Source: a virus. From it: a stretch of DNA of 64,000 bases. Below the pieces are notes generated by a model. It worked only from the letters and a program-made list of their open reading frames with translations. It made no database searches and was not told the DNA's origin. Every line of letters begins with the position of its first letter. Position 1 is the stretch's first letter. The position numbers were made by a program, and so were the translations under genes. Location of the stretch: IMG/VR virus record IMGVR_UViG_3300044971_004534; one strand, 5' to 3'. Positions 18,544-47,781 of this stretch are shown piece by piece.

Positions 18544-18555
18544 AGAAGGTTTATT

Positions 18556-21138: not shown

Positions 21139-21139
21139 T

Positions 21140-22837
21140 ATGGGATACACAGATCTTAGTTTTTATCTTGGCTTACGTAGATTGGCTGGTATTAGATCAG
21201 CTGCTCCTGCGGTAATTGTTATTGATCAAAATTTAGGACAAGAAGTTTATGTGGTAAGGAAGAATGAAATTATCACATTATGGGGTTGTGAAATGATGCC
21301 TCTGCAATCAGATTGCATTCGTATAAGTTACAAATCCACTGCATCTTCTTCTTGGACTGTTTTAAAAGACTATTTAGCTCAGACATCATTGGGAATATTT
21401 GGAAGTAATGTTTCAACAGATCCTAATTTATTTTTATCTGGTTCTCCATCTCTGGCGGATAATTATGAGTTGAATGATCCTGTCTATAAGGACGGTTTTA
21501 AAATTAGTGGAGTGACTTATTGTAGAGAACATGATAGTCCTTTTAAAACAGTTGGGTATTCTGGATCATGGATATATAGGCAAGAACAGCAGATTCATGC
21601 CAAAGTTTCATACAACAATTTTGGACGAGGTTTTAGATTTTTTCAAGACGGATATTATAAGTTTGATTATGATGAATCAAAATCAGCATTGTACAAAAAA
21701 ACAACAGGTTCAGCTAATCCAGTAGATCCTGATGCTGCTGATTATAATACATTCAAATACAATGGTTCTGTGCCGTGGACCCCAGTAGATAGAAGCCTGT
21801 ATGAGCATGGCGATGTTTTATTAAGATCCATTATAATTAGATGTGCAACTAATTTTGATGCAGTTGCAAATGCAAGTTATAGCGATAGCGACTTGTCTTC
21901 TTTAAATCCAACAGTAAGTTCTTTGCCTATCAACACTAGTCAAAACATATGCAGAAAAATAGGGTTGCAAGTAAAGTCAAAATCTTATGATGTTTCTGGA
22001 GGTTCAAAGCCAACGTGTTCTGCTAATGGTTTTTTGATAGACATTTCATCTGCTGGAGTTGCATCGACTACTATTAATCAATTTGATACAAATATTTCGT
22101 TTACTAGTGGTACTATAGTTAAAAATATTAGAAATAGGACTTTTGACACTGTCAATTTTGTGGGTCCTGGCGATTTTGTTCAGCATATATCTCCAATTCC
22201 TGGTTCAGACTATTGTGCTCAGCCAGTTGATATGCGTAATTCTAGATTTTATAATTGCACATTTAAAAATGTTATTTTTGGATCTCCTGGAAAATCTCAA
22301 TTGATATTAGATGGTTCGATATTTTTTCAATGTAACTTTGAAAGTTGTAAGCTTTATTTAAATCCTAAAAACATATTATTTAAGAACTGTACTGTTAATA
22401 ATAGTTCAGTGTCTGAAGGATTTTTAATTATGAATGGATCTTTTGGTAATATGTTTACAGATCTTATTGTAAAAGACACTAACAGGCCATTTGTTTTTGT
22501 TAATAATGAAAATAGCAATAATAGTAATTTTATTATAATGAGTAATTTTAGTCAAGGTGGAGATGTGGAGCTAGGTAGCTGTCCATTTGTAAATGTAGTT
22601 CCTGGTTCTAATTCTGCTCATTCTTCTTCATTTTCTGGCAATATTATTATGCGTAATTATATTGATGATGGATCTGGAGATCCTGTCAGAATAGAAAAAA
22701 CTTCAGCTCATGGTAATTTTTTTGGTGGAAATTACATGATTTCCCATGGAAATCTATCTTTAGCAGAAGACTTGAAACAGAAGCAAAAAAATAAGGATTT
22801 TATTAGATATCCCAGTATTAAGCCCTATACTTCGTAA
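21140..22837 (+). CDS. Fibre/receptor-binding-like protein, paralogue 3 (565 aa)
   Basis: The N-terminus LAGIRSAAPAVIV...ITLWGCEMMPLQSDCIRISY, plus DGYYKFDYDES and VDMRNSRFYNCTFKNVIFG...FFQCNFESC, mark the same family as the two preceding ORFs. Confidence 0.85.
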   Translation: MGYTDLSFYLGLRRLAGIRSAAPAVIVIDQNLGQEVYVVRKNEIITLWGCEMMPLQSDCIRISYKSTASSSWTVLKDYLAQTSLGIFGSNVSTDPNLFLSGSPSLADNYELNDPVYKDGFKISGVTYCREHDSPFKTVGYSGSWIYRQEQQIHAKVSYNNFGRGFRFFQDGYYKFDYDESKSALYKKTTGSANPVDPDAADYNTFKYNGSVPWTPVDRSLYEHGDVLLRSIIIRCATNFDAVANASYSDSDLSSLNPTVSSLPINTSQNICRKIGLQVKSKSYDVSGGSKPTCSANGFLIDISSAGVASTTINQFDTNISFTSGTIVKNIRNRTFDTVNFVGPGDFVQHISPIPGSDYCAQPVDMRNSRFYNCTFKNVIFGSPGKSQLILDGSIFFQCNFESCKLYLNPKNILFKNCTVNNSSVSEGFLIMNGSFGNMFTDLIVKDTNRPFVFVNNENSNNSNFIIMSNFSQGGDVELGSCPFVNVVPGSNSAHSSSFSGNIIMRNYIDDGSGDPVRIEKTSAHGNFFGGNYMISHGNLSLAEDLKQKQKNKDFIRYPSIKPYTS

Positions 22838-22894: not shown

Positions 22895-25800
22895 ATGACC
22901 TGGCCAGTTATTTCTTCAAGCAATCCTTTTGCTCAAACCATAAATCTCAGTTCTGATTCTGATTTACCACCTATAGCTAGATGGTCTAGCGTGCCCATGC
23001 AATGGGTTCACGATGGAGAATCGATAAGAGCATCTGTGGTAGCGTATCACTCTGCTGGTATACAAAGAGTTGATTTTATTTGCGACGGCGGAGAGTACGA
23101 GTCTGGTGGTCATATTATTAGCGTTATTAATCCTGTAGCGGACGCAGTTTCAAAGCAGGATGAGTATGCCTGTAGTATTGATATAGATAGTACTTGGCCT
23201 GAAGGAATTCATACAATCAGGGCTATTGTTTATTCTAATGCTGGCACTCAAAGAGTATTGCAGGGAACTTGGTTGCCAAAGTTTTCGTCCTCTTCAGACG
23301 AATATTCTTATGCATCGAATGGAGAGGTTGATTTTACTTTTATAGTTAATCGTGGATCTTATGACGGCATTACAGTTTATGTAGATTCTGTAAATGGCAA
23401 TGACGCTAATTCGGGTACTTTTGGCTCACCATTAAAAAATCTATGGAGCGCAATAGTTAAGATTCATGCAAGCCATACAGAAGGCTCTATTAGAGAAGAC
23501 GTTATTGTCTGTAAGGCTGGAGAGTATAGAATAAGCCCACTTGTCCAAAGCGATTATCCCGGCGGAGTGATTTCAGATGCACCATTGGGGTCTGGAAGAA
23601 TTGGTTGGTTGAAAATAAAGTCGATGGATGGTGTGAATAAAAAAGATGTGGTTATCACCAACCGTTCCATTAATTTTGGCAGTGTTGGATCTCCTTCAAG
23701 TTATACAGTACTTTCTAATTCTTTAGAATCTCGTTTTACTAATTTTGAAAATTTAACTTTAGAAAACTTTTATGATAGCAGTACAAATGTATCTGGAGAA
23801 AAGAATTTTATTATTAAAACTGGCGCGAATGTAGATAGCAGAGGAGTGTGGTTGAATGGCTGCAGTATTAGGGGAAAAGTAGGGGTATCTGTTGATACGT
23901 TAGTGTCTAGTTTAAATAGTCAGTCAAATATTTCTTTTAAAGCTTATCCTGGCATATCAGAGAATATAGTTGGGTTTGCTACTAATTGTTCAGTCAATGG
24001 CTTGTATAGAGGTTTTAAAGATTTTGCTTTAGTGAAGCAGTGTGGAATAGGCAGTGTCGTAGAGTACGCAGCAAAAAACTGTGCTGCTTTGATGTCGTGC
24101 AACATATCCAGTGTCGGGAATGTGGGAGCTGTATCTGGATCTGCAGTGATCAGCTTTACTGAAGATTCAGGAATAAAGAAAAATATTATTATATCTAAAA
24201 ATAATATTAATAAATCTGCTATTGCTCATTTTAGTTTTGATGCTAATGGAGCAACATTCAGTCCTAATGATTTTTACGAGAGTATAGCAATAGTCTCAAA
24301 TTATTTTACTAGATTTTCTGGTGGTCCAGGTAAGTCTTATATTTTTAATGGGATCAAGCAAGCATTTATTGTTCACAATAGTATGCTTGACAGTCTATCC
24401 TTTCATGATACACCAAATGGAGCGTGGACTAACCCAGCCAATGTGAGCAGCATATATTGCAGATACAATTTATTAAATGGAATTATAGTTGATTCAACAT
24501 CTGGCTCAACAGCTTCATTAGGTGCTGGTTTATCAAAGTTAAATACTTCTTTAACAAATTCAAATTCTGATATATCTGCAAATATATTTTTATTACCATC
24601 GGTTTCTTCTAACCCGCTTTTCTTATCTCTAATAGTAGCTAATCAGAACACGCAGGTAAATACAAGTTCACACAAAGTTGTCAAAAATTATTCTGAAGGA
24701 AATCTTGCTCTTTTGTGTGTTTCTCTTAATGGGGTTTCTAATCCAGCAAAAGGTTTAGAAAGTTCATCTATTTTGAATACTGACATTTTGGGTAATTCAT
24801 ATGAGAATTCTAAGGGAGATTGTGGTGCGAGACAGGATTGCACTGAAGAGGTTTCTCCAGATATTATAGAGACAACTGAAATTAAAACAGTTCCTATATC
24901 TGGATTTCCAATACTTGGAGCTAATCAAGTAGACTTCTTTCAGTCTTCTACTTTTGCTTTACAGTATCAGTTTAGCGCTTTTGATATGGTTCTTTGGTAT
25001 GATCAAAACGTAAGAAATTTTCCTGCTTCTGCTACAGAGACGGGATCACCTTACTACCCAGGTGGCTCTTATCAAGAGTGTCAGATTTGCACTTTGGGCC
25101 CAGGATTGTGCACAAGTACAGTTGATGGTGGCGCAAATTGGTTTAAGAGATGGAGTCTGCCTTCGAGTTTGACATTTGAGCTTTCTACTCTTCCTGCTTG
25201 TGACAGTGGGAATACTTCTAAGATAGCTGGTACTCGTGCTGCGTTTAGAGAGTATTTCGATGTTGATGGTATGGTGCGCGGAATGTCAAGGTATAACCCA
25301 GACTGGGCATTAGTATTTCTGCATGGTGGGTCAGAGCCATTGTGGTGGGATACTCAGATACCTGGAATGAGCCAATGGGCTTTGCTTAAAGATGATGGAG
25401 AAGAAAGCACTTCTATGGGTCTTGGAATGGACGTAGTGCAGGCCTACAAAGATGCATCAAATAAGTATAAGCAAAAATTGATGGCTTACTTTTTTCCATT
25501 TGCTTGGATTGAGTTAGATTCTTCTGTTTATCCTTATGCATTAGATATTTTTGGAAATCATGTTACTGAGGGCAGACATGGACCAACTATAAGCTATAGA
25601 TCTTCTTTTAATGATGCATTTGTTGACCTGCTATGCCAGATACATGTTGAGATGGCTCGCAAGTGTTTTGATATAGAAACAGGCTATGGATTCGCTGGGT
25701 GTATGTGGGATGCAGCTCCGATGTTGTATACACTTGACTTTAGTCCTGACGCAATTGCTGCATCTGGAATAGATGCTACTAAAGATTTTCCTTGGCCACT

Positions 25801-28800
25801 TAATAATCCGGCAGATGGTTCCAACACTGCTTTATTGACAGCATTTGTAAGTGAAGTTACCGCTAATGCGAATCCAGGTTCTCTCTTATTAAGAGATCCA
25901 AATCCCGCTAGAGGCTGGACACAGGATATTAAGGATAAGTTGCAGGCATATGTATATGCATTAAATAATCTTCAACCAGACATCATGCGCCGCATAAGAG
26001 AAGCTGTAGATGAAGCTGGATATTCTGATTTCGTGATCCTTCATGCTGTTGCAAACTCTCAGCCATCTTTTGAGTGGCCAGGCAATGCTGAAGATGTTGC
26101 ACTATATTCTTCTGGTGTCAAAACAGAAATAGGTGCAGAAGGCTATCTGAGAAGAAGGCAGGCTTCAAACGTTACTAGCAAAACTGGATCTAAAGCAGCT
26201 CCAGATTTATGGCTTGCCATGCATACAGATTTTTTAATGTCTCAGTCTAGAACTGGAAAAAGAGCTTATGGATGGCAAATTGGTCAATGGATTATACCAA
26301 ATTGGATAAGTGGTAGTGAATGTGACGCTACATTTAAATCTTGCTTAACAACTTTTGACGGTAATTATTCCAATAAAGTAGAGTTTAAAAACAATCTTCT
26401 TCCAAGAGATATAGCAGTACGTGGTTGGTTGGAAAACCAATCTTTATTAGCTCTGGCTTCTCACGTTACCCCAGAGTTTATGTATGGGTTTTATGATTGG
26501 TATAAATATGATCAAGTAGAAGACTTGTCAGGATTTGAGAATGCTGCAGACGCCTTTGCAATACAGCATCTTCCTTATATGAGAAGAATTTCTTCCATAC
26601 TTGGATCTGTTAGTGATGCAAACGTCAAGTTGCACAATAGATCAAATGTTGCATGGTGTGTTATATTGCATCGTCCAGAGCTGGGCTGGAAGACAAGTTT
26701 GTATATTAATACTGGTGTTAATGAATCATTCTCTGGCCCTGGTTTTGCTTACTACTGGCCAATATTTGGAGCTGTACAGACATGTGTTGAGCATGGCATT
26801 GCTCACGTTATTGCTCAGGATGATGCTTTTACTGCAAGTAATTTTGCAAATTCTGGAGTAGTTATAGTTCCTTTTGACAAAAATCTTTTGTCTGCTTCTG
26901 TGAGAAATGAGCTTGAATTATTTGATGGACTTGTCATATATGTGCAAGACGCCATAGCAAACGGTGAGCTTGATGATAATTTCCATAATACCCAGTCAGT
27001 TGGAAATAAAACAAGAGCTCAAGTTTCTAGAGATCAGTTGTGGAATTTGATGCAAAGAACTAATAAAAATTTAGTATTGCAAACAGAGTTTTCTTATCCT
27101 CAAAATTTGCCTGAATCTCCAATTCCGATGGTTGGTTATGAAATAGGAACTGATGTTTATGAAAATCAATCTCTACTTGTGACCTTAGTTGCAGATGCTG
27201 CTTGGCACGATGGTAGAAAATATGGATTCTTTGGTCTTACCGTCAATAACTATCCAGTAAATGGAGTTTGTGGTAGACAAAATTTGTTACTTGCATCTCC
27301 TAACGATCCAGAAAATGATCTTGTTAATTCTTTAAATTTAAGGAAAATATTAGATGTATGTAGTTGCACTTATACTGACACATTTACTACAATTAATACT
27401 ATAGCTGGTAGAGATTGCTATTATGTTAATCATTCTGCTGCTGGAGTAATACCGGTAGAGGTATTGCCAGCAAGAGGCAAGCTTAACTATTATGCTGGAT
27501 ATCCTCCAGTTTGGAATAGTAATAGAAGCGCAAGAATAACATTCAATGCTTCTCAAAAGCCTTATAGACTTAGACAGTTATTGTTAAATAAAGATGATGG
27601 AGTTTTTGGTCCAGTTGACATGTTTGTTAACAATGACTTTGTTGATGTTGTTCCGTTTGAAATTGGATCTTTTGTACAGGTTCAATTATCAGATGCTGAC
27701 ATTATCCCGCATGTTGGAATGTGTGTATCTGAAGATTTACTAAAAGTCGCCAGTGTTGATGATCTAATTTCTTTACTAAGTTTTTTAAGAGATCAGCCAG
27801 CATCATTCAACGTTATAAAAGTTAGATTGTCATGCGGTTCTTCAATGGTCGAAGGCGACGTAGTTGCTAATACTTTATTCACAGAAATCATTTCACATGC
27901 ACAGTCTAATCAAAATGCATATTCTTGGCTTGTAAATAATGTTGGGGAAATAGGAAGTCCTACTATTCACACTTTATTTGGCCTACTTAGATCTACGTCA
28001 CAAAATCCATGTGGAGATGGATCTTTCTCTGTTGGTGGAGTTTTAATACAAAATGAAGGTATCTGCAAAATTGCATCAGCGTTAACTTCACTATCTACTA
28101 TGTATAATCGTTTAACTAGCGATAGTCAATGTTACTGTGAATCTTCAGATACCTATAAGCTATACTCATCTAAGGTAAATTTAGACAGATCTTTAAGTCC
28201 TTCCGATGGCTCTAGCTGGGCTGCGACGGTAGAAGATGAAATCTCTGCCATATCAGACGCTAGCGATGGTTTAATGATGTACATTAGGCCTGTAAGTGAT
28301 ATTTCAAGTGATTACTACAATATTGACGTGAATGGTTTGCCAATTATAGATGGAATTGTTAAATATGTTTCTGATGTTAATGACGCAATACTTTCACATA
28401 CTGCTAACGTACAAGATGCTTCAGATTATTATGCAGGAGTCGTATTAGACTTTGAGCATCTTTTTAATATAAATAGCCCTCTTGCTACCTTGCACGCAGA
28501 CGCATGTTCTTACCCATTCTTTATAAATTCTCAGGGCTCAGATTCTTTTGACAATGTCAGGAGATCAATTGCTTATGTAAATGGCAGATTAATATCTGTG
28601 CTAAGTGCTATTAAATTTATAAATCCAAAACTACAGGTTTCTATAAGGGGTCTCGGAAGAATAGATGATGCTTTTGGCTTTGAGGAAAGTAAAGACTCTA
28701 GTGCAGTACATACGGCAGCAAATTGCACTCCAAAAGCACGTGAAGAGTTGTATAAAAGAGTATCAGAATTTTATGGTCCACTTTTAGAAGCTTGTGATTT

Positions 28801-31800
28801 CGTATACCTTTGGAATGCAAATGAATCTGAAGATGCAGATCTTTCTGGTATTATTCCTAGTATAGCCAAGGCTAATTTAAGACTTTCCTCTTTATCTAAG
28901 CACTTTGAATATAGACAAGCTAATCAGCCATTAATATTTGTTGAAATAAATGGAACATATTTGTCTTCTAATGGCAATTCGCCTAGTGATTACTGTGAAG
29001 TTTCAAGTGCAGAAATTCTCGCAGAGTCACTTGATCCGTTTATTCGTAATAGTATAGATGGATTTGTGTATTATGCTGGTCAAGAAAATATAGAAAAGTC
29101 TATTTTTGAAAATTGCCCAACTTCTATTTCTAATTCAGCAATTGCCGCAGCAGTATCTTCTTGCTGGGATGTTGCTATATCTAATTGCTCTAGTGAAAGC
29201 GGCGTAATATCTGCATTTGAATCTTCAATATTAAATCATATTGAGTTAATATCATCACATATTGGTGGAAGCACTACAGAATCTTATATTCCATTTATTA
29301 TTATGATGGGAGAGTCTAATGCTGGAGGTTTGGCAAAGAATTCAGAAGCTTTAGCTTCTGAATTAGGAACAAGAGATGAAGTTAAAATTTTAAATAATTA
29401 TACTTTAAATTTTGAAACTTTAAATATTAGTGCTACAGGTAATAATATTTTAGATCACCGTAACCCAAACGGTATACCAGATGTTACAGATTCTATATGG
29501 AATTCTAATGGTGGGCCTCCTCATGGCTGGGAGCTTGGTTTAGCTAATGCTGTAAGAGATGGAAAATTTGCAACAGATTTTGTCTATCTTCTAAAAACAG
29601 GTCATGGTGGTTCTAAGATTGGAGACAATGCTATTGATGGTGACTGGGACACCTCTGATACTTATTGGAATTTATTTGTCAATAGATTTAATGTCGCTAA
29701 ATCTGCTATTATTGCTGATGGATATACTCCACAGGTATATTTATGGTATGAAATAGGAATTAATGATTGCATATCTAATGTAAATCCATCTCAGTGGAAA
29801 ACAAAATTAGTACAAAAGTTTATAAATGTAAGATCTGCTGTAGGTGCAAATATACCAATATTCATAGTATTATTGCCAGATGTTGATATGTCCGGTGGCT
29901 CTATTGATAACATATCTGATTTCAATAATGCTATTTTAGAAATTTGTGCAGAAAATAACTTAATATATTGGGTTAAATCAGAAGATGCTCCATTAAAGTC
30001 TGGTGATATTTATCACTGGAATTATTATGGCATGAAAAATCTTGCTGATAAAATGTCGTACTTGACTGCAGATGTTATTGGTCAAGGCATAAATTATATT
30101 GCAAATATCGCAGTGGCTCCTAATCAGCCAGACTACAACAATTTTTCCCCAGTTATTGGATTTATACCTTACAGTAATTCATCAGATCCAGCTTTAGAGT
30201 TTGTTTATCCGTCATTCGAGGTTAGGGGTAGACTTTCTGGTAATGCCATAAATGACGAGCCAGGATCTGGTCCTTATCCAAGTAGTGATGGGTCTCCTTC
30301 GCAAGCTATATCTTTCTTTAATTCTAAGGGTATACCAGCAGCAAGAAGATCAGTATTCTATTTTAATATTGGATCATCAACATTTGATGGGGTATTTTCT
30401 GATCCTATATACAATAGAACTTATGAACAACTATATAATTCATCAGACAGTTGTATAGATGCAAATGGAGATATAGTAAGACAAGACACGTTAGATCCAA
30501 GAGAGGCTCAAAATCCTACTTATAGAGGAAGTCTAGCTTTTGTTTCTCCGTGGACATTAGGAGCAAATACAAGACTTGAACAATTTACTCGTCAATGGGT
30601 TGGAGAATATAAAAATTTAAATGGAAAGATTTATGGCTTTATATCTGATAATGAATCCCTCAACCCAACTGGCTTTTGGGCTGTCCCATCTTTAAGGTAT
30701 GACAACAATAACACTTCTCGCATTCCGCACTTCCAAAAAATAATTAATGATCCAAGATCCTTGCTTACTAATGAAAGTGCTGGATACGCTTTTGAAATTG
30801 GTAAAAACCTGAAAGACCAATTAAGGCTGAATGATTTTTACAACATAAACGATTTTGACTCCGTTGATTTTAGAACTATTGATGACCCGCAGTTCAGGGG
30901 AGGCTACCTGCACTGGGATTATGTGATGTATAGGCATGCCATATGGTATGCTCAAAAGCACTGGTACGATGCCATTAGTGATTATTTTCCAAATCATAAT
31001 TCAACACATGTTTGGACATTCTATATTCCCAAAGAAGATCATTTTAATGATATGAATGGTCATATTACTTACAGAGATATGCTTTGTGGTAATACTGCAA
31101 ATCCTTTATTGTTTGGAGAATGTGGTGGAATTGGAATCAACAGTGAAATAGATCCAAACAATAAAACACGAACAAGATTCTTATCTCAATACAATCCTGG
31201 TGGAACTCCTTTTGGCTCTAGGGCTTGGAATAGCTTGTTGTTGCAGCAACAGGAAATAAAGGCAATACGTAGACATCCAGAAAATCAAAAATTTATACCA
31301 TGGATAGGAAGTAGAAATCTTATTTTGAATAACGCTTTTGGTGGTGGATCAGATGTGAATCATGATTCTCTGTGGGCTGAGGGAGTATATCACTTAGCTT
31401 TACACAATCCAGAAGCTATATACATGTTCTACCCCAGAAATCCAGATGGAGCTGGGGACACTGCTTGGTATATTGAGAATGGTCTAGTTTCTTATCAATT
31501 ATTAAATTCTATATTGAAAGAAGTGAATGAAAGAACTGGAAATAAAATTGTTTCTCTTGTTGAAAGTTCTATACAAAGAATAAACCTTGATAGTAAAGTT
31601 TTAATAACTGGTTGCAAAACTATTAAAAATAAACATCTATGGAGAATAACGGCAGATGTTTTACATGTTAATTCTTTGAATATAGATGGTTCTGTTTTTG
31701 CAGTACAGTCTAGCAGTCCTGCCATATGGTATGAAACTGGAACAAATGTTGCAGCAATCAATATTCTTTCTTATGATCCAGTTACTAAGACTTTAAATCT

Positions 31801-34800
31801 TGTGTCTTCATCTGCAGAAGCTCCTTTGTGTAAGTCTTGTATGTCTGCATTCATTTCTCCAGCTATTACTGCTTCAGAGTTTAATGTTGATAAAAATTCA
31901 TTCCCTCAAAACATTTTCTCTATGATAGAAATTAGTGATCGTGTTTTGTCAAGAGATACTTATGATCCTAATGGCGCGTGTGCAGCCAATGCTTCCGCAA
32001 TAGTTTCTTGTAATAAATATGCATTTTATAAGAATGATACCAGTGATTACAATATTGATGGCGGAATTAACTATATTAATGACGTTGTTCTTGGCGCTTC
32101 AGCTGAAAATGCATTTAATTATACTGGCAATATAGGTTTTGAATTTAGTAAAATAAAACAATTGTTTATTGACTACCTGTCTGTTCCTTCAGGCCTTGCC
32201 GTTATGGGATCAGAATTAAACAAGGCCATCAGGCAGATGTTTGAGACTGTTGTTGTTTCTAAAAACTTTGCGCCAAAAGCAAAGATTGGTATAGTCAATT
32301 CTCCTGTAGTTCCTTTTAGTATGCCAAATTTTGATTGGAGCACAGCAAGTGAGTCTGAAAGATATAACATTATTGACAAGTGTGCTTCTTTAATCGAGGA
32401 TACTATATCAGAAGTAGATTTTATTGCCCTTGACATGAGGCAGCAATTTGAAATTCAAAATAATGTTCAATATGCTTCTTTCTTGTCTTATGCAATATCT
32501 GTAGTTAAGCACTTTAAGCAGTGGCTTTCCAGTAAGGGATTAACTAAAAAGATATTCGCAGTTGTATCTAAAGAAAGCTATCAAGATTTTACAGAAGTCC
32601 CAAACGACAAGTATACTACATTAATAGCTTCAGTATCAGAATATGTTGATGGATTTGTGTATAAGAGTTTAACTGCTGAAAAATGGATTCAACTATTTGA
32701 TGGTGACGCAAATAATGACCAGGCTGCTTTTGATTCACTTTCTTCTATATTAAACAGAAATGTTGGTTCGGCAGATACTGCTACTTACAATGCCATACAG
32801 TCTTACAATCTTAGCAACTTGACGACATTAAAGTCTACTGTATCTTTCAATTGCAGATCTTACAATGTCTCAAACAGTAGTGGAGATGTAATATCATTTA
32901 GAGCAACCAGAGGACCTAGTTACCCAGAGTGGATGAGTAGCGCAAGACTTATGATGAAATTTAGTCTTTCTGCAGAAAACATAAAGTCATGTGCAGCATT
33001 GGCTGTGCCTCATATGCCAGCTGCAAGTTCTCTATCTGATGAAGACACTATAGTTTGCGTATTTGTAAATACTCAATATGTGTCTAATAGTAGCCTGTTT
33101 ACAATAAGTGGTGCGTCTTGCAATGCAGTTAGAAAAATATCTACAGCAAGATCTGTTTTCTTAAATGCTCTTCAACTACAGCAGTTTGTTAACTATGCAG
33201 TCAGTTATGCGCCAGACGTTTTAGTATTTGATGCACATCAATTTGATGAACCCCTATGGTACAGTACTGCCACTCCAATTGGTACTTGGAATATATTAAC
33301 ATCGCATCCAGGATATGGTCTTGGTCCTGGTTTGGATATAATAGACACATATGTTGCTGCAGCCAGTACTGTTGGTTCCAAGTGTGTACTAGATATCAAT
33401 CCATGCTCTTTTGTTACTTTGCCTGCATCTCAATATCCTTATAGTCTAAATTGCTTTGGCGGAATCATTAAAGAAAATTTTGACAATGGCATTAACATAT
33501 CTATTAGAAGTTTCTTAAATCAAAACTTTGTTGATCTTACTTATCAGTATCATGATGAGCTATTTAGTAAGGGTGTTGATGGCGTTATGTGGAACAGAGA
33601 AGTTTTATCCGATTATGGAGACTTTTCCGCAAATGTTATTGAAAAATTTGCTCGGTATTTAGGATACGAATCTGCAAATGAGTTAGAATTTAAAGAAAGA
33701 TTCCCTTTCCCAGCAGTCTGCGGTTCATCACTTGGAAATTATCTATATAGTGCAGCAGGATTCACTGGGACTTGTGATAGTAGCGCTAATATCAGTGTTG
33801 AAGATTTGGTGTTTAAAATACCGAATTTTGGCACATTATATACACAGGAGATAAAAGACACTTTAATTGAATACTTTGCATTCTGTCATAATTTGGCAAA
33901 TGCAAACATACTGTATATACAAAACAAAATTGATTATTCTTATGGAACTTCAGGATTAAAAGTAATTATCCCCCATGTTGGATCGGATATAATTTATAAA
34001 TGGAAGTCATCTTTAAGTTCTGAAATATTAAACTCAGCCAGCGTCATCACTGTTAATTCTGGTATTGAAAAACAAGCTCGCTCTCGTAGAATAAAAAATG
34101 CCAATACTTCTAATAATACTCAAGAAATACAAAGACCTGGAGCTGCTACTGTAGAAAACTTTGGCTTAGACTTGCTGTCTTCTTCTGATGGTAAAAAGAT
34201 TATAATTAGAAAGTTGCCAAATATATTTAAATATGCAGATACCAGTGTGGCGTCTCAGTGGAATAATTTTGATAATGTTAATGCAACGAATATAGTTGAA
34301 GACGGAATTGTTAGAGAGGACGGGATCAAGGGGCATCTTGCTTCTTGTGTATTTGACTACATAAGAGCTGGTCATGCTGTAATGCTTGACATGCCTAATT
34401 GGTCTAATTATCAAGAAGACGGTGAAACTGTCAATTATTCATATGTGAATAATGACCCGCCCAGAAATGATATGCCATTTGTCTTAAATGTAGTAGATAT
34501 TAACTCTTTAATGTCTACTCTAATATCCACTAGTGCTCGTAATAATAAGCATGCATGGGTTGGAGTGCATTATCCAAACAGAGCCAGAAAGTATGTTCAC
34601 GTTTCTGATTCTGTGGCTTCTTTTGGACAGGAATTCTATAGTGATTCAAATCTTGAGCTAAGTCGCTATGGCTATTCTGGAAGCATGTCAATAGGTCAGT
34701 TTAACTGGCCTATTTTTGGCGTGTATGAATCTTGCATATATAGTGGAATATCTTGTGCTGTTATAAATGATACTAGTTTAGAGAATGGAGATTTTTCAGG

Positions 34801-37800
34801 TTTAAGCGTAATAGTTATACCTCACAAGAAATTGTTGAGTTCTATGCAAAAAGATAAGTTAGATCAGTTTAACGGATCAGTAATTTATCTGGAAGATTTG
34901 TATGGTCAAGGTTTGCAGAACTTATGGCATAGCTCTTTAAACACTATTTCAACCAACAATCCTGACTATGTCACACTTTATAACTTGTTGATAAACAAGA
35001 TAAATGCTGTTGCAGGAAATCCTCCGGTAAAGGTTTCTGTTAATATTGATAATTCTATCAACACTGATAGTGGTAATTATATTCTCAAGCCATTTAGCGT
35101 TTTTGAGGTAAGCGAGTCTCCTGAATCTACTAAGATTGTTGTATGCGTTGCTAATGACAGAAACTGGGCAGATGTTAGAAACAACATAGATGAAAATGGA
35201 ATATATGGACAGATAGAAAGAAATAATGATTTATTGAATATAAGTTCAGCTAATCCTGTCTTCAATACAATATACAGTGGGGATGATTTTTATGTCAATA
35301 ATTCATATCCAGTTTTAGGACAATTTAATTACTATGCTGGAGACCCACCAGCTGGATTTGGAAAAACATTCTCTGTCAGACTTAGCTTTAAAAATAACAT
35401 TTCTCTTTTGAGTGTTACTCAAATATCTTGTAACTACTCAGATAATAATGTTTCTGGAACCAGTCTTTCTTGGTCTAGCGGAGCAAGCGGTCAGTCTGTA
35501 ATTTCAAATCTTATTTCTGATTTTGCATGGTTTGAAATAGAATTTTCATACATTACTCCTAGTTCAAGTTCTTCATCTTCTAGCTCGTCTTCAAGTTCTT
35601 CTTCTATTGATGATGGATGTATTACATGGACAGGACCTGGATGTTTAGACCTAGATGGTGATGGTGTTATAAAAGGATCTGATTTGGCTGCACTGTTTGC
35701 AGCTTATTCAGTATATGATCCTAAAGCAGACTTTAATGGGGATGGTGTTGTAAATAGTTTAGATTTAGGAATTTTGCAAGTAAATTGGGGTAGATGTGTA
35801 ACGTGTCCTAATTGGAATCCAAGTTCTAGCAGTTCTAGTAGTTCCAGCAGTTCTAGTAGTTCCAGCAGTTCTAGTAGTTCCAGCAGTTCCAGTTCCAGCA
35901 GTTCCAGTTCCAGCAGTTCCAGTTCCAGCAGTTCCAGTTCCAGCAGTTCTGAATGCGTTACATGGAACGGACCTGGCTGTCCAGATATGAATGTAGACGG
36001 CAAAGTTGACGGAGTAGACTTGCAAATATGCTTATCCGCTCAGTCTGAATATAATCCCGTTGCAGACTTGGATGGTAATGGAATTGTAAATGGAAATGAT
36101 TTAGGAATATTGATGACCTATTGGGGACAATGTGTAATATGTCCTAATTGGCCTCCAAGTTCGTCTAGTTCTAGCTCCAGTGTATCCAGTTCTAGTTCTT
36201 CTAGTTCAAGCTCCAGTGCATCCAGTTCTAGTTCTTCAAGCTCAAGCTCCAGCTCATCTACAATAGAGTTGTTTAGTATTTTGCAAGCCAGACCTTCAGT
36301 TGGTCCTAAACAGCCATCCTGGTGGTCAACAGCAAGCGTGCATTTCCAATCTTTCAATCCATATGCAACTATTAAGCAAATTTATGAAGCAAATATGGAT
36401 GAATCTGCTCCGGCAATCACAGAGCCATCTTTACTTGAGGTTTACAATGAGCAGTCATCTGGATGTGGGGTGCGTCCATATTACGCAAATAGTCCAACTG
36501 GGTATCCTCCTGGCTATGAGTTTACGTATCGTTCAGATTATGCATGGATGCGCTCTAATGGTAATAGCTTCAAGGAAAGATTTGAAAATGCATTAAATGC
36601 TTGGTTTAACCCAGAACAAAGAGCATTAGTGGCTCATAGATATAGGCCAGATATAGTTATGATAGATTTGCATAATGGTGATGAGCCATTTATCTATAAT
36701 TCTGCAGTCCCAAATGCAAAAACGTCTTTAATGATTGATGATGTTAGTGGTCTTTCTGATTATGATATGGTAAGGCCATTCATAAGAAAATCACACGAAC
36801 TTGGCATGAAATGCACTGCTTATTTCAAGCCGCACTTTGCTTTCCTAAACGAGAGCGTATTCCCTGCTGCACTTACTGCAAACGGGCAAAAAATAAGGGC
36901 AGAAGTTAACTTAACTCAGTCTTGTACTATTCAGAGAAGCATATTCAATGAAAACTTTAAAAACTTCTTGAAAAATTGCATGATTGAAATAGTTACACCT
37001 GAATCCGGTGGTGGACTTGAATGTGATGGAATTTATTGGGATGCAAGTTTGCTAGAAGAGTTATTAGATTTCAGTTCAGACGCAATAGATGTATATGCAA
37101 AATATTTAGGTTATTCTGGATACGACGACCCAGAGTATGTTTTGTGGGCTCAAAGTAACTTCCCATTCCCAAAAACTTCAGGATGGATCGTATCACAAGA
37201 GGATGGCTATATTGGCGGAGGTTCAAGGCCTTCTTACAAGAATGTTTATCCAGATAGTAATTTTGAAGGTTTAGGATATTACAATTTAATTAACAACAAT
37301 GTTGATTTAAATGAAAATCATATTGAGAATTTAAAAACTTTCGTATCAGTAATAAAGAATAGATACTATGAAATTTTAGATGAAATTTCTCAGGCTGTTT
37401 CTGTAGCTAGCAATGGCAATGCAGTTTTCTTCCCGGCAGAATTACCGTCATGGCCGGATCAACCACATGCATCTGTTTCTTCTGAGGTGGCCAGGTACAC
37501 TCATGCAGTAAAAACTGAATTTGCAGTTGAACCAAGAGGCTACAGTGGATTAAGACGAAAGTCAGAGCTTACTCAAGCTGTGTTGTCAAATGAGATATTA
37601 TACTGTGACATACAAAGACCTTCAATGTCTTTGTCTATGACTTTAAATCAAAAATTAGACTTCTTCTCTGGCAATAAGACAGCGATACAGTGGAATCCAC
37701 AGCGAGTGTGGATATCTGATTTACCAATTGGTTCCTCTGGATCTGCAAACACTCTTACCACATTTAATAGTGACCAGTTCTATGTTTATCCAACTGGCTA

Positions 37801-40800
37801 TCCTCTTTTCTTTGAAAGAGGGCTTGGAAGAGAGGATAGTATACATGGTTACTTGCGAGCCGTATATCAGATAATGATTAAAAATGGAAACATATTTGAC
37901 TTTAACACCTGGTACGGCGCAGGATGGGTTGGAGATCAGGATCAGTTTATACAAGATGCGACTTTGATTAATAATGATGGGTACTTCAACAATCCAGACA
38001 TGGGTGTTTCTCCTGGAAATACTTATGCTTTCTGGCGTAAGGCAATATATCACGCTAGAAAGATGAAAGAAGAAATTATTAAAGAAGGTTTAATATTTAA
38101 TATTCGTGAGGCATATTCTTGGGCAGCCATTCATGTTCCAGTACGCGGTCGCATAGGTATAGATGCACCTGTTTCTTGGGGTCAAGATTATGTAATAGGA
38201 CAGAATAAAACTATCAACAGGACTGTTACTACTAATGAAAACAATCAAAATTGGGGTCAATTTTGGTGGCCAATTTTGGGGGCAATGCAGGCATTTGAAG
38301 ATAGATTTATTCCTTATAGTTTGTTGTTGGACGAGCAGCTCTATAATGGTGAGCTAAACGGAATTAGTGTTATAATTATACCTCATCGTGAATGGCTGAC
38401 TGTCACTGATCAAATAAGGTTGCTGCAATTTGAGACTGCTGGCGGCAAAGTCGTGTATATGGATAATGCGTTCTCCGATTCTGGTGGAGGATCTTCTGAT
38501 CCAAGAAGAAAAGGTCGTTGGTATTCTTATGAAGATCAAAATTCTGAGTCTATCAAATTTATAAACTATGTAAAATTAATTGCTGGAGAGCCAACATTCA
38601 GCGGATCTGTTACTAGTTATGAGTATGACGATGGCACTTATCGTCATAAGCAGGCGGGCTGGTTTAAATTATCTGAGCAAGACTCAGACGGCAAGCTGCT
38701 AGTTGGAGTTCATTTATTAAACGACATGTCTTGGATGGATATGCGCAAAAATGCTTCTATGCTAAGTGGTATCGATCCAAGATTCAATCAATTAGACCCA
38801 GTGACTGTTCCAGTTAAGGGATTAATGGATCAAGATTTATTTGGCTGGGGCGAAGATTGGAGAAATTGGTACAACGAAAACTTTGATCCTACTAATCCGC
38901 CACACGCCTCAATATTACCTTATCCTATTCCCAACCCTGATCCATCTGCAAATGTAAAGCAATATTTCTACGATCCACACGCTGAAAACATGTGGGGCAA
39001 GCCATTGATTGGATATGGACAATATTGGTCTGCAAATCTCCGTTTAAATTTGCCATCAGATTTTAGAATTAACAAAGTTTATAAATTCTATGTTGATCAA
39101 GAAAACGATCCAAACGATGCTGGTATTACAAAGAAGGCATTTAACTATAGAGCTGCTGCTGAGTCTACAGTCATGTCGTTAAGTAATATGCCATATCTGC
39201 CTAGACTAAATAGTATAAATACTTCTAATACGGCTAACGTTATAAATTATGGAGCTATAGGCGATGGTGTTTCTGATGATACTCAAGCATTTATCGATGC
39301 AATTGCATCTGGATTTAGCGCAATATATATACCTGCTGGTAAATATAGAATCACTTCTTCTTTAAATATTAGTGATTCAGTTAATATAATTGGAGATATC
39401 GGATCTAGTATATTAATGTCTGACATTCAAGGCGGAAATGCTTTGTTTAATATTGTCCCAGAAGGTTCCGCAGTAACCTATTCTTATGAAGGTCAAATAT
39501 TTAGTGGTCAAAAAGAATTCCAACTTTCTAGCACCATAGGCTTAAGCGTAGGTCAAAAATTAATTTTCAAAATTGGACATGAGTCTGCAAGTTCACTTTC
39601 GTTTGAATATGCCTACGATATAGAAATACAATCTATTAATGGAAATATTATTACATCTGCTAGCGGTGCTCCGTTTGCATCTGATAAATTGATTCATAAA
39701 ATCGACGTGTATGCTATGTCTCCTCATGATTTAGTCATAGAGGGAATAGATATTACTAGTTATGATGAAAATTCTTCTTATTATGCATTTAATTTACTTA
39801 ATTGCATTAATGTTAATTTAAGAAATATTAATATATTTAATTCTTCTTTCCATGGTATAAGGATTAATAAATCTTCAAAAATTAGTATTGAAAGATGTGT
39901 ATTTGACAATATTGGTGCTGGTAGTGGTGCAATGCCAAGTGCAACAGCTATAACAGTCACCTATGCTTATGATCTTAATCTTTACAGGAATTATGTTAAG
40001 AACAGTCTTAGTGGATTATTGAATCTATTTAAATCAAGAAAAATCAATGGATCATATCTGTGGGTAAACAATTGTCAGGATGCATGCTCTTTTGCTTACA
40101 TAAGAGATATATTAGAATTTGAAGTAACTAATGTTTATATAAACAATAAAGACTTAATATTTGTAACAGATTTAGGAGTATCAAGTCCATACAGTACAAG
40201 TAATGTATATCTGCTGCAAAAACCATTTGAATTTAATGTTTCTAATCATAGTGGAATTTTGCGCATAGAAAATAGGGTTTTCAATGGCGTTACGTCTGGA
40301 GTGATTACTATTCCAGTCAATCCTCCAATTGTCTCAAGTTCTTCTGGAAATGAATCTTTAGATGTAATTGCATGGGGTGCTGGTTCTGATCCTTCCAAAT
40401 ATCAAAGAGCAAATAGTTGGAATGATTTATATGTCACTGTTCCTAGAAGCTATGCGCACAAAGACCAGTCATATATACCGTATATTGATAATCCAGAAAA
40501 GGTAGAAATACAAGAGGGCAATACCTTTGTTCTTGATGCTAATGGGAAAATGTATTCTTCTGGAAGCACCAAATTTAACATGAGACCGCTTCCGGCTAGC
40601 ATAACTGATAATACAGTAATAGATTTTTCATCATCTTTATATCAGTTAGGTTTAATTATATCAGATAATGGGACGGGAGACTTGAGTGTTCTTGTACATG
40701 GTAGAAAACAGTATAACTTGTGCAGAACATTAAAGTTTAATAATAACAGCAATGAAATATTTTATGTTAATGCAAATGGAAAAATAGGTAGAGTCAACGT

Positions 40801-43800
40801 ATTTAGTCAGCAAGAAATTGATGGAATAGTTTATGGTCACAACGATGTATGGTCAGATGGAAATCCACTGTATCAAATTTCATGCAACAGTATACAATTT
40901 ACACAAAACGGAAAGCTTGGTATATTTGGAGCTTTGTGGAGTTGGGAATTTGGAGCATATAATATAGCTCAAGTTTATAATTTAGAAACAAAACAAAATG
41001 ATCATATTACTCCAAAATCAGTCCTGCTTTTAAGAAGAGATGATCCTCAAAATGCTTGGATACCAGAGTGGGCATGGTCTAGTCAAGATACAGTACAGGA
41101 CAGAATGCTGTGTCATTCATTGTCTGATAGTAATGATCATATATTCATATTTGGATTATGGTACATCTATAAAATAGATATAGTAACTAAAGAAATAATT
41201 AGTAAGAAAAAAATATGGGACATATTCACTCCAGGTATGTTCTCTGATGATCCATGCCCAATAGGGTATGCAAAATACTTACCACAATCTTCAAAATGGG
41301 TTATCATGCTTCTCGACACTTATAATTATCCAGTGTTGAATGGATATCTTGGAGTAGTTACTGATTCTGACTTTAATGTTTTACATTATATAGAAGATCC
41401 TTCAAATGATGGTCAAGGATCTTTGATGTATCCTAATGTTCATAAGCAAGTAGACATTAGTAGTGATGAAAAAAGATTAGTTATTTCTTCTTATTCTTAC
41501 AGCGGTGAAAAAACTTTTGTCAATTTAATTAATTTAGCTAGTGGGGGAAGTAGTCTGTGGACATTAGAATTAAATTCAGAAACAGAAGACGACTTTGTTG
41601 CAAGATTTGTAAAGTTTACTCAAGATAACAGCTATATTGTAGTTGGACTAGTAAGGAATATAAAAATATTAAACTTGGCAGGAGCTCCTATTGATATTAA
41701 TGATTCAGAAAATTCATATACAAGCTTTGCATCTACAATTGATGATGTTTCTACGGGTGTTTTGAATAACGATATTATAGTTTGCACTCGTTCTACTGGA
41801 GGTTGGTGTATATCTGGATGGGAGTCTGTCGCTGAATTTGCGCCAACTGAAAATCAAATACAAAAATTCACCTTTGACAATGGTGGCGTAAGAAAATTTG
41901 CTTTTTCTCCTGATGGTCTAAGGTGTAGTTATTGGGGATGGTCTAATTATTATAGGGTTTCAAATTCACCAAGACTTGAAGACTTTAGCTTTGTTGATAC
42001 TAATTTTACTATCAAAGATAGATCTAATTTGGCTATAGATATATTTGACTATATAGGCGATGCTGTTCCAGTGTCTATAGCAACCGGTGTAGAAAATGCT
42101 GCTGTTGTGCTTTCTAACGGTTCTTTGTTCTGCTGGGGAACTAATCGTCAAAACGAAACTGATTATCCAGATGTTTCAAATGCAAAAAGTGTTCATTATG
42201 TTTCTGAGCATTGGTCAAACACTCTTTTTGACAGTGAGGGGCGGCCTCTTAGAGGAAGAGGTTACATAGTATTACTTAAAGATGGAACAATAAAACTATG
42301 GGGTAGTTGGGTATTCTTGGAGGGATATGCAGACCTGTTGCAAATAAACGATGCTATAAAAATATCTTGCAGCTCTTGGTATGTCACTGTGTTGCATTCT
42401 AATGGCGTTGCATCTTTGCATGGCAGAACTGACGTTGTGCCTCCAACAGAGCCTTTCCCTGAAAATGAGAGCAATATTATAGACATTGCTTCTACTAGAT
42501 TGGGTGGAATGTTGCTTAAAGCAAGCGGAGACGTAATTACTTGGGGATATGAATCTGTAGATAGTAATCCAGCTTCATGGACATATGGATCTGGATTGAC
42601 TCACAGGCCGAGTGCAGCTATAGGTAAAGTTGCCAAGTTAGGCACCTCTTATTTTGGAGCATATCCTGTTATTAAGCAAGATGGAAGAATCGCATGTTGG
42701 GGCTGGGATAGCTTTAGATTATGCGCTGGAGGTGATGATGCTAATGGAGACGGAATTCCTGATTATGTTTGCAATGGTATAGTTAGAGAAGGTTACAATT
42801 ACAATAACACTCCTCCATTAAGAAGTAGTTTCATAGATATTTCTGCTGGAAGAATGCATACTTCTTTCGTATTAAATGACAAAACTGCTTATTTTACGGA
42901 TTGGTCTTCGGATAAAATTGATAATTATGTTGACTATGGACAATTTGGTCCATTACAGGACTGGTATCCTGCTGCTAATTCATTCGCACAGTCTGATATG
43001 CCATCTCCTTTGAATAAAAATATAAAGAGTGTTTCTAGTGGATTTGGTTACACATATTTTATAAGAGAAGACAATTCTATATTCTCTATTGGAGCAGATC
43101 CTGGCATGGGATTGGTAAATGTTTTATGGGCCTGGCTATTTGAGTGGGATGTTGATTTTGAAATGCCACTTTTTGCTCCCATAACGTTCCAGGCAATAAC
43201 TCCTAGTGATCTCACCCATGCTAAGAAAATAGCTGCCGGAGATTTCCATACAGCAGCAATTACTATGGAAAATACGGTTAGGTGCTGGGGTTATAATAAA
43301 TTTGGTCAATGTGATGTGCCTGCAGAAGCTGTAGACATAGTGGATATTGCAGTTGGAAGGTATCATACCGTTGCTGTTAAGGCAGATGGTTCAGTGATTT
43401 GCTGGGGAAGAGACAATAAGGGGCAATGTGCTGTTCCCTCAAGCATTCCACCAATTAAAAAGGTTGCGGCATGCATGAGTCACAATGTGGCGTTGACAAC
43501 TAGTGGCAACTTGGTTTATTGGGGCAGTGGTGATCATTATGATGCATTAAGTTTATTTAATGGCAATCCGTTCCCCTCTGAGTCTCCTAATCAGCGTGGA
43601 GATTATGCATCCAGTGGAAATTACACTGATGTATCTACAGGAGTTTTCCATACGATAGCTCTTAAGAACGATGGAACAGTTGCAGTGTGGGGTAAGGCAA
43701 ATTATAATACCGGTATTCCAGGTTTTGACAATAATTTTGGTCAATTTGATTATCCAGAGCTTAATGGTAAAAAGGTAGTAAAAATTTCTGCTGGACATTA

Positions 43801-46291: not shown

Positions 46292-47781
46292 TGGCTTACA
46301 TGGCAGCTTTGTCAAATGAATATGAACTTGAATGTTCTGGATTTTCTGGATCTGGAGGAGACAAGTCTTTCATATATAGAGAAAATGTTTATTTTTTGGG
46401 CAAGATACAAGCTTCAAACGTTTCTGCAGGCTATCTGGGCTTCCCGGGTTATTTTAAGATTGATGAAGCTCCATTTGCGATTGTATCTCAATTTGATGCA
46501 AGTACAAATTCTTTAAAATTAGTATGCAATGGTTACAGTTCTCCAGTTTTTAGAAATAGAGGCATTTGCAGGGATGACATTGTTGTTGGGGCCAAAAGCG
46601 GTGCAGTTAGATATGCTGGAAGAAATTTCAAAGTGTACACTGCAGACGGGGCTTCAATAGAAAAAACGGGCATTAAAGAAATTGGCTATAATCCTTTGCA
46701 CCACGATTTATTTGATTTTTCTTCTGATCCAGAAGTCATGTCTTTTGACAGATCTTTTCCTTTAAATAGAAATTTTTATAAAAACACTGTTTTTAATAAT
46801 TTAGATCAAAAGTTTGCTTGCATCGCCTTATTTGATAGAATTCCGCTACCTGTGCCATATACGGCAAATAAACATGGGTTTAGGCAGGCAGTAGCAGTTA
46901 CTCCTAGACATGTTTGTTTTTCAGATCACGTTTGGCCTTATATGGGTCACGACATTTCTTTTTACGATGTGGTACAAAAAACTATAGTTAATAGGACAAT
47001 AGTTAAAAAATTTAATTTTAATCTTCCAAATTATATATTAAAAAATGAAGATAACAATAATCTATCTTTTGGTCAAAGCGATCAAGGTATAGGCATATTA
47101 AACGAACCTTTGCCTCCAGGGGTTCCACTTGCGTATGTACCAGACGTAGCTTATAAGTCATATCCAGAAGCTACAAGAGTTAGAAAGATGCCAGCACTCG
47201 CTATTGATCTTTCAGCAAGAGGTTTATGCTGTAACGCTATAGTGGGTTTTTTAGGTAATGAAAATATTACTTCTAATATCACTATTATTAAAGCTGATCA
47301 ATTTACTGATGCTCTTGCATATCAAAACGCATGCTTAGATCACTGTAATGTTGGAGATTCTAGCACTATGTTTTTTACCTGTATTGATAACAGGTTAATT
47401 TACATGGGGTCTTTGGCTTCTGTTTCAAACAGTGTACATGGATTGTCTGGAACATTTTTGAACCAAGAATATGGATATGGAAAAATAGACTTGTCTTTCT
47501 TTCATTATCCTAATAGATCTGGAGTTATATCTTCTGAGGTAAAGGATAGATATTTACAAAATCAAAGCTATGGTACATCATTGAATTTTTGGTCTCGTGT
47601 TGGAAACAGGGCTTTAAGCTATATTTTTACTGATTTTGATGTATGGGAAACGAGCATAGACCCCTCTCATGTTCCATCAAGGATAAAAATAACTAATGAT
47701 ATAAATATTACAGAGTCTAATTCATATTTTGATTTGTCTAACGATAACTTATTAGACAGAAAAATAAAATTTATATCATGA
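46291..47781 (+). CDS. 496-aa hypothetical protein with possible chymotrypsin-fold (S1-like) His/Asp/Ser motifs
   Basis: A strong SD (AGGAG, 46280-46284) lies 6 nt before the ATG, and the ATGA overlap joins it to the next gene. The motifs are AVTPRHVCF (H207), SDQGIGILNEPL (D264) and NVGDSSTMFF (S357). Their order and spacing are 57 and 93 residues. Confidence 0.8.
   Translation: MAYMAALSNEYELECSGFSGSGGDKSFIYRENVYFLGKIQASNVSAGYLGFPGYFKIDEAPFAIVSQFDASTNSLKLVCNGYSSPVFRNRGICRDDIVVGAKSGAVRYAGRNFKVYTADGASIEKTGIKEIGYNPLHHDLFDFSSDPEVMSFDRSFPLNRNFYKNTVFNNLDQKFACIALFDRIPLPVPYTANKHGFRQAVAVTPRHVCFSDHVWPYMGHDISFYDVVQKTIVNRTIVKKFNFNLPNYILKNEDNNNLSFGQSDQGIGILNEPLPPGVPLAYVPDVAYKSYPEATRVRKMPALAIDLSARGLCCNAIVGFLGNENITSNITIIKADQFTDALAYQNACLDHCNVGDSSTMFFTCIDNRLIYMGSLASVSNSVHGLSGTFLNQEYGYGKIDLSFFHYPNRSGVISSEVKDRYLQNQSYGTSLNFWSRVGNRALSYIFTDFDVWETSIDPSHVPSRIKITNDINITESNSYFDLSNDNLLDRKIKFIS

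Follow-up and report, generated by a model that had tools for sequence, protein, structure and literature searches.

Three dockerin modules between poly-Ser linkers in a giant phage protein

A protein of 7,798 amino acids (aa), encoded by a roughly 400-kb freshwater huge phage, contains three short calcium-loop modules enclosed by runs of serine, and the question raised by this locus is what these modules are and what they may do for the phage. The DNA analysed, which is called the window below, is a stretch of 64,000 nt from the IMG/VR virus record IMGVR_UViG_3300044971_004534, with a GC content of about 35% and with all of its long open reading frames (ORFs) on the + strand. According to the ORF list and its translation, the ORF of this megaprotein, which holds all three modules, occupies positions 22895..46291 on the + strand. 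The identical product was called in several independent assemblies with contigs of up to 401 kb, the 401-kb one being JGI 3300036398 Ga0334988_0000001; therefore, the giant ORF is not an assembly artefact.

Translation of the ORF and a six-frame regular-expression scan of the whole 64-kb window bore out what the first-pass annotation had described from the letters alone, namely three modules with paired Ca-loops, a frame of four cysteines and poly-Ser flanks. The modules, named M1, M2 and M3, are 70-80 aa in length, and each contains two 12-residue loops of the form DxNxDGxxxxxD. All the coordinates given for them and their linkers refer to the + strand. M1 (35606..35821, aa 4238-4309) follows a linker of 15 Ser (35561..35605); its Ca-loops are located at 35648-35683 and 35729-35764, with the sequences DLDGDGVIKGSD and DFNGDGVVNSLD, and its Cys codons at 35618, 35642, 35795 and 35804. 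A second linker of 43 Ser (35822..35950) separates M1 from M2 (35951..36157, aa 4353-4421), of which the Ca-loops, DMNVDGKVDGVD and DLDGNGIVNGND, are found at 35984-36019 and 36065-36100, the Cys codons of the frame at 35954, 35978, 36131 and 36140, and an extra Cys codon at 36029. M2 is followed by a third linker of 34 residues, all of them Ser except for a single Val and a single Ala (36158..36259). M3 (44423..44662, aa 7177-7256) lies downstream, behind a fourth poly-Ser linker of 54 residues (44261..44422), and is followed by a Ser-rich region with three shorter Ser runs (44684..44815). It represents a second subtype, B, with a longer segment between its two loops (DINGDGFVDFRD at 44462-44497 and DLNGDGSINVAD at 44561-44596), and its Cys codons are at 44426, 44456, 44627, 44630 and 44636.

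The scan found only these six loops in the window, all of them within the three modules, and found the motif CxxCPN[WF] only at the three module ends. The modules start with C-x4/5-G-P-x1/2-C-[PL]-D and end with G-x-C-x2-C-P-N-[WF]. At the N-terminus, M1 and M2 have the spacing C-x4-GP-x1-C and M3 has C-x5-GP-x2-C, so that the frame itself stands and the x3-4 originally given for its first gap does not. The end of M3 reads G-Y-G-C-C-E-C-P-N-F, and M2 and M3 each have a fifth, non-conserved Cys. AGY and TCN codons are mixed in the poly-Ser tracts, which are found in the megaprotein at no place other than around the three modules; the dockerin cassettes mark the only low-complexity joints of the protein, which are two in number. 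Listed ORFs of 86-99 aa on the - strand (35704-36025) overlap the poly-Ser coding tracts and are almost certainly artefacts of low-complexity sequence.

The modules are predicted to have the dockerin fold

All three segments passed the gathering score (22.9 bits) of the Pfam dockerin profile, Dockerin_1 (PF00404), with 28.7, 24.4 and 35.5 bits and E-values of 1.5e-6, 3.5e-5 and 1.1e-8 for M1, M2 and M3, respectively; a query with half of the protein scored 49.5 bits. These E-values, together with the conservation of the modules in related phages described below, indicate that the likeness is more than chance. M1 was modelled with AlphaFold2 from an alignment of 58 sequences; the model had a mean predicted local distance difference test score (pLDDT) of 88 and a predicted template-modelling score (pTM) of 0.72, with helices at residues 25-33 and 52-60. 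When the Protein Data Bank (PDB) was searched with this model by Foldseek, the best 22 matches were all dockerins. The top match, 2Y3N_B of Bacteroides cellulosolvens, had a target TM-score of 0.81 and a root-mean-square deviation (rmsd) of 2.0 Å over 57 columns, and the dockerins as a group superposed with rmsd values of 1.2-2.1 Å. The Foldseek E-values are modest (best, 4.4e-3), which is expected for a domain of about 70 residues. Like the type I dockerins of known structure (PF00404; 2Y3N_B and 2VN5 of Clostridium cellulolyticum), the modules have two Ca-loops, each followed by a helix, in about 70 aa. From the Pfam scores and the predicted fold we concluded that the three segments are genuine dockerin-fold modules, that is, duplicated F-hands with two predicted Ca2+-binding loops each, and the earlier assignment to the dockerins was thus supported on both counts.

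The dockerin signature could be mimicked by an ordinary EF-hand pair or by calcium repeats of the thrombospondin type 3 (TSP3). Weak matches to EF-hand Pfam models (E-values from 2e-4 to 0.07) were indeed obtained, and calmodulin-like chains appeared in the PDB sequence search. However, every EF-hand model, including PF00036 and PF13499, stayed under its own curated cut-off on the modules, whereas Dockerin_1 exceeded its own; no TSP3 model of Pfam matched the modules at E<=1; and calmodulin-like and other EF-hand proteins superposed on the M1 model with an rmsd of about 11 Å and a probability below 0.1, against 1.2-2.1 Å for dockerins. The TSP3-like sequences met in our DNA-pattern scan, moreover, differ in context (DxDxDGxGDACDNCPN). 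The Pfam cut-offs and the fold comparison effectively refute an EF-hand or TSP3 identity, and we regard it as highly improbable.

The four-Cys frame is conserved in related phages

The first-pass annotation had tied its proposal to the conservation of the Cys bracket in homologues. We aligned the modules of the window with those of loci from related phages (L007/L013, L009, L024 and L025), ten distinct ones in all. Their pairwise identity is only 39-65%, and the four Cys are nevertheless invariant in all ten. The invariant residues of the bracket are C6, W9, P12, G13, C14, C65, C68, P69, N70 and W71, and those of the loops are D16, G21, D27, D43, G46, G48 and D54, so that loop positions 1 and 12 are the same throughout. 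Subtype A, to which M1 and M2 belong, has the consensus CxxWxGPGCPD...YNPxAD...WGxCVxCPNW; subtype B, represented by M3, starts with CT[RK]IWSGP(Y)GCPD, has the longer inter-loop segment and ends with GCxxCPNFxW.

The related phage IMGVR_UViG_3300042326_002445 (locus L009), 79% identical to the window in the unit flanking the modules, keeps all three modules with all four Cys. In this record and in the contig of L012, two further modules are borne by a second protein, which is at least 1,723 aa long. The European Nucleotide Archive (ENA) scaffolds MEHR18-4 (281 kb) and LIAN20-1 are more distant, about 50% identical in the C-terminal domain of the second protein, and both keep a subtype-B module with the Cys frame. 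A module identical to M3 is present in independent metagenome contigs. In the related phage (L007, at about nt 12220-12250) the megaprotein frame is broken between stretches of 4,073 and 2,599 aa; a genuine split, an error of sequencing or a frameshift could each account for the break.

Occurrence of the frame outside the phage lineage

To see how far the frame extends, we scanned viral, genome and metagenome collections with DNA patterns for WGxCxxCPNW and for D-x-[DN]-G-[DN]-G-x16-C-x-x-C-P-N. In IMG/VR the frame was found in no viruses beyond this phage lineage. The exact frame was not found in 185,579 species genomes (one for each species), where the matches were planctomycete dockerins and thrombospondin-like chance matches; in the planctomycete ones the matched motif, WGSCDDCPNCPAD (of the type WGxCxxCPNCPAD), is the linker between two repeats. 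In the metagenome set only the same phage and one planctomycete matched. An exhaustive profile search of 1.84 billion representative proteins gave 24,041 matches (E<=1e-3); the best 150 of them are dominated by proteins with multiple dockerin copies and include none with the four-Cys frame, and a word-indexed protein search with a profile of the three modules returned short planctomycete-type dockerins, none with the frame. A tblastn search of the modules against 50,697 GenBank phage records gave one marginal match only, and no PHROG family matched them.

In the databases, the phage modules come closest to planctomycete ones of the form C-P-A-D-(loop)...A-W-G-x-C-P, which correspond to the GC-type dockerin of NCBIfam (NF041540). 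The closest cellular relatives belong to the Planctomycetota/Phycisphaerales; P0024 is 74% identical over the second repeat taken together with 'NWGRC'. NF041540 is the only NCBIfam model that matched all three modules, with 25.4, 20.6 and 14.4 bits, all below its curated cut-off of 29 bits. The phage modules resemble the GC type in having a Cys just before the first loop, offset by one residue, and a Cys at the W-G-x-C position, the equivalents of which are WGRC in M1, WGQC in M2 and GYGC in M3. They differ in having four Cys instead of two, the GC type being without the C-x-x-W-x-G-P prefix and the C-P-N-[WF] suffix. They also differ in location: GC-type dockerins are C-terminal anchors, and the phage modules are internal. 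Other Cys arrangements exist as well. P0084 and P0187 read 'VWTGPCPD...GQSGFxCN', and the Phycisphaerales protein MCK4873526.1 and others have multi-Cys brackets with different spacing. As judged from these comparisons, known dockerin variants also have the inner Cys pair, and the outer pair with its W/GP/PN[WF] context is lineage-specific; the subfamily is known so far from a single lineage of huge freshwater phages.

Dockerins in viruses are not new in themselves. Dockerin-annotated viral proteins are already present in UniProt and BFVD, for example A0A516MFS6 and A0A8S5NQH0 ('Dockerin type 1 [Myoviridae sp. ctagO6]'), the likeness of which to the phage modules is one of predicted fold; and Cys-bearing dockerins are already curated. 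A literature search on dockerins in huge phages gave nothing relevant beyond a jumbo-phage preprint that lists a dockerin gene without comment. What appears to be new here is a lineage-specific, putatively Cys-clasped dockerin subfamily that behaves as a mobile cassette in huge-phage tail proteins.

The cysteines are predicted to form a covalent clasp

Dockerins are known to hold a non-covalent intramolecular clasp between their N- and C-termini, in which residues -1 to -3 ahead of the first loop meet residues that follow the last helix (Slutzki et al. 2013, PMC3821032). In that study the exchange W(-1)A in ScaADoc of R. flavefaciens lowered the melting temperature from 61 to 41°C, and all clasp mutants reduced cohesin binding about ten-fold. 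The phage Cys fall in the same contact region. C14, the inner of the two N-terminal Cys, has position -1 when counted from the Asp of the first loop, and the inner C-terminal Cys occupies residue 23 of the second repeat, just as its counterpart does in GC-type dockerins. DSSP assigned short strands to residues 7-8, 22-23, 63-64 and 66-67 of the M1 model, and we read the model as placing the C-terminal G-R-C-V-T segment between the N-terminal strand and the first loop. This packing would put C6 opposite C68 and leave C14 for C65. The four Cys would therefore tie the N-terminal strand of each module to its C-terminal tail, most likely by two nested disulfides, an outer one between C6 and C68 and an inner one between C14 and C65 (M1 model numbering). 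The known clasps consist of aromatic stacking, hydrophobic contacts or salt bridges (PMC3821032), whereas the phage Cys pairs could make a covalent, doubled version of the same contact. In the open-access literature that we searched, no natural disulfide-clasped bacterial dockerin is described.

The main alternative is that the four Cys form a Cys4 metal site, for example for Zn2+, which would clasp the termini as early as virion assembly, under the reducing conditions of the cytoplasm. It is there that the proteins of tailed phages fold, in surroundings unfavourable to disulfides, and the C-terminal C-x2-C is a classic metal-binding knuckle, with all four Cys invariant. On the other hand, the N-terminal pair, C-x7-C or C-x9-C, forms no knuckle, and the strand pattern of the model sets C6 opposite C68 in an antiparallel ladder, as is typical of a cross-strand disulfide. 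Furthermore, homologous planctomycete and other secreted modules hold the inner two Cys only; this number suits a disulfide and is too low for a Cys4 site, which argues for disulfides. For these reasons we consider a metal site rather unlikely, and we prefer the double disulfide.

The view of the first-pass annotation that the bracket defines a structurally distinct dockerin subfamily, and its question whether the CxxCPNW bracket occurs in known dockerins, can now be answered in part. The exact four-Cys frame is confined to this lineage, which favours a separate subfamily. Distinctness is lessened by the inner pair, which has a counterpart in the curated GC type with the one-residue offset, by the multi-Cys dockerins of Phycisphaerales, and by the position of the bracket at the ordinary non-covalent clasp.

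The modules behave as cassettes

Enclosed by poly-Ser linkers, each module forms a cassette complete in itself, and such cassettes occur also in the second giant poly-Ser-linked protein of the related phages (L009 52-5223, in IMGVR_UViG_3300042326_002445; L024 3478-9885; L025 4327-9981). In the phage of L009, the second protein has a type-A module that is 91% identical to M1 of the phage's own megaprotein, whereas this M1 and its orthologue in the window are only 64% identical. L009 has this type-A dockerin at a linker where L024 and L025 have none; there, the orthologues of the second protein show only 'GLGSQ' between two poly-Ser runs. From the 91% versus 64% identity and the 'GLGSQ' at the same linker it follows that the type-A module was, by all appearances of the sequences, copied recently within one genome into a poly-Ser linker. 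Poly-Ser-coding DNA would be a plausible recombination substrate for such movement. The C-terminal domain that follows M3 in the megaprotein has no homology to the one behind the type-B module in the second protein, and no close orthologue of the second protein was returned from the window's own phage. The second protein also has Cys-rich segments and a tachylectin/NHL-like propeller (sub-threshold Pfam matches). By eye, a region of the L009/L024 protein also looks Hint/intein-like, but this is not claimed, its Pfam match being sub-threshold (E 0.0025) and missing from a further Pfam search.

Neither tandem dockerins nor poly-Ser linkers are without precedent. Tandem dockerins are known but rare; in Clo1313_0689 of C. 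thermocellum (PDB 8X39/8X3A), which was matched in the PDB sequence search, two of them in one polypeptide are packed into one rigid unit (Chen et al. 2024, as summarised in PMC12484212). M1 and M2, in contrast to the packed pair described there, are 43 Ser apart and are probably independent. Long pure-Ser linkers separate the modules of secreted carbohydrases in Saccharophagus degradans and Cellvibrio japonicus (PMC2386152). The phage linkers differ from these in belonging to a predicted virion protein and in flanking, within the megaprotein, only dockerin cassettes.

Context of the modules in the megaprotein and the genome

The middle third of the megaprotein matches the PHROG families of tail spike, pre-neck appendage and tail proteins, and the protein also matches the Pfam families of pectate-lyase-like beta-helices and RCC1 propeller repeats. 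These matches indicate a structural, tail-spike-like protein. The tail-spike-like beta-helix region lies at 39236..39919 on the + strand (Pfam PF12708, E 2e-10; PHROG tail spike and pre-neck appendage), and the best-scoring stretch of RCC1-like beta-propeller repeats at 43334..43837 on the + strand (Pfam PF25390 and PF13540). A lone DDANGDGIPDYVCNG motif, TSP3- or Ca-loop-like and without dockerin pairing, is located inside the propeller at 42722-42775 (aa 6610-6627).

Self-BLAST with 300-aa chunks and subsequent alignment disclosed three paralogous units on the + strand: A (24992..27694, aa 700-1600), B (32912..35539, aa 3340-4215, directly upstream of the M1-M2 tandem) and C (36392..39214, aa 4500-5440, directly downstream of it). 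The tandem is thus placed exactly between units B and C, and M3 between a beta-rich segment that follows the RCC1 propeller and a C-terminal domain of 490 aa. The units, of about 850 aa each and with pairwise identities of 24-27%, form a large orphan domain family: no relatives were found in Pfam, the PDB or the sequence database, even with a profile of the three sequences. A glycoside-hydrolase-like identity was considered for them and dropped, as no match in these sources supports it.

Upstream of the megaprotein (14887-22837) are three consecutive paralogous proteins of 1,218, 860 and 565 aa with a common N-terminal region of about 200-330 aa and an internal repeat-like region; from their sequences they look like fibre or receptor-binding proteins that form a set of alternatives. 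The first of them (1,218 aa) has a weak PHROG match at its C-terminus. Downstream are a 496-aa protein and then a 3,994-aa protein (47778-59762) with Kelch repeats, a weak VWA match and poly-Ser runs near the C-terminus, in which no dockerin module is present. Three glycosyltransferase genes (GT2, GT1 and GT2; 59785-62352) directly follow the giant structural genes. It is pure speculation that the poly-Ser linkers, or else the host surface, might be glycosylated by their products. Downstream of the window, a region of L027 (11221-21221, NCBI GCA_043537505.1) encodes a DEAD/ResIII helicase, DnaB, a DnaG-type primase and DNA polymerase III alpha, that is, a replication module, and also a protein with an IF3 N-terminal domain, a translation-factor gene that fits a huge-phage genome.

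Docking function and alternative explanations

The explanation of the whole that we favour, with a little more confidence than doubt, is a Ca2+-dependent docking knob that is secured by a covalent double clasp and shuffled as a poly-Ser-flanked cassette among giant phage proteins. In the cytoplasm free Ca2+ is sub-micromolar and thiols are reduced; the modules would therefore probably fold and lock only after lysis. Thereafter they may serve, on flexible tethers, as small and rigid knobs for protein-protein docking, with a partner, cohesin-like or other, on the virion or on the host surface. To our knowledge, the only established role of the dockerin fold is Ca2+-dependent protein-protein docking to cohesin.

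Docking is the weakest step of this explanation, and several observations weigh against it. No Pfam cohesin was found in any protein of the window, where the first-pass annotation had recognised none either, nor in the modules of the second protein, nor, by precomputed lists, in the 10 kb downstream; these searches used sequence profiles only, and about 320 kb of the genome lies outside the searched DNA. The beta-rich segment of 138 aa before M3 gave no cohesin match, even a weak one, in a PDB sequence search; its single-sequence AlphaFold2 model (pLDDT 38) was unusable. The modules are internal (aa 4238-4421 and 7177-7256 of 7,798), unlike the C-terminal type I dockerins, from which they further differ in their four invariant bracketing Cys, in the lack of symmetry between the two repeats of a module and in their carrier, a tail protein made in the cytoplasm and not a secreted enzyme. 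In cellulosomal dockerins, cohesin is recognised by helix positions 10, 11, 17 and 18; as we read the alignment, these positions differ among close orthologues. Confidence in the M1 model is lowest at its C-terminal end (block pLDDT 83, then 56). Finally, many non-cellulosomal dockerin-like modules have, as far as we know, no partner assigned to them.

It is from these points that a serious rival to docking draws its strength, namely that the modules are partnerless structural beads, rigidified by Ca2+ and covalently stapled, which punctuate the long poly-Ser tethers and would set spacing, limit entanglement or proteolysis, or toughen a very long tail appendage. Such beads need no cohesin, and none was detectable by Pfam in the DNA searched; the modules stand only at poly-Ser joints, their putative recognition positions are poorly conserved between orthologues, and the protein is still present in the pair of orthologues that has no type-A module at the same linker. 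However, docking is the only role established experimentally for this fold, and a simple spacer would not need two intact Ca sites and an invariant W/GP/PN[WF] surface maintained over a divergence of 39-65% identity. The 91% identity between two proteins of one genome, against 64% between orthologues, also resembles the within-species uniformity of cellulosomal dockerins, but recent duplication explains this pattern equally well. Taken together, we consider the beads possible, though less probable than docking knobs. A different account, which keeps docking but moves the partner to the host, holds that the modules were captured from a host with GC-type dockerins and bind its cohesin-like surface proteins as a receptor. 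The closest cellular relatives in Planctomycetota/Phycisphaerales, the multi-Cys dockerins of Phycisphaerales and the tail-spike-like nature of the megaprotein are consistent with such mimicry. Planctomycetota genomes, on the contrary, typically have a GC content far above the 35% or so of the phage, and the exact frame was not found in the 185,579 species genomes, for which reasons we think this origin improbable.

Implications

If the docking knobs are real, one may go further and imagine that huge phages build or deploy giant tail appendages by a plug-and-socket system of the cohesin-dockerin type, a virion-borne assembly resembling a cellulosome. We put this forward as a speculative and rather doubtful extension. 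Dockerin knobs on poly-Ser tethers, folded by environmental Ca2+ and locked by disulfides only after lysis, would plug several giant enzyme-like proteins into a common socket on the virion, or into cohesin-like proteins of the host surface, and the poly-Ser tracts would serve as recombination sites by which knobs are shuffled between proteins.

Should the modules dock, the modular assembly in the style of cohesin and dockerin would extend from bacterial cellulosomes to virions, and this would open a way to learn how phages of 400 kb organise tail proteins with thousands of residues. The Cys frame, as a predicted natural covalent version of the dockerin clasp, may be relevant to hyper-stable dockerins for designer cellulosomes. 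Should the modules not dock, they would still present a clean case of domain-cassette shuffling via poly-Ser linkers in the structural genes of huge phages.

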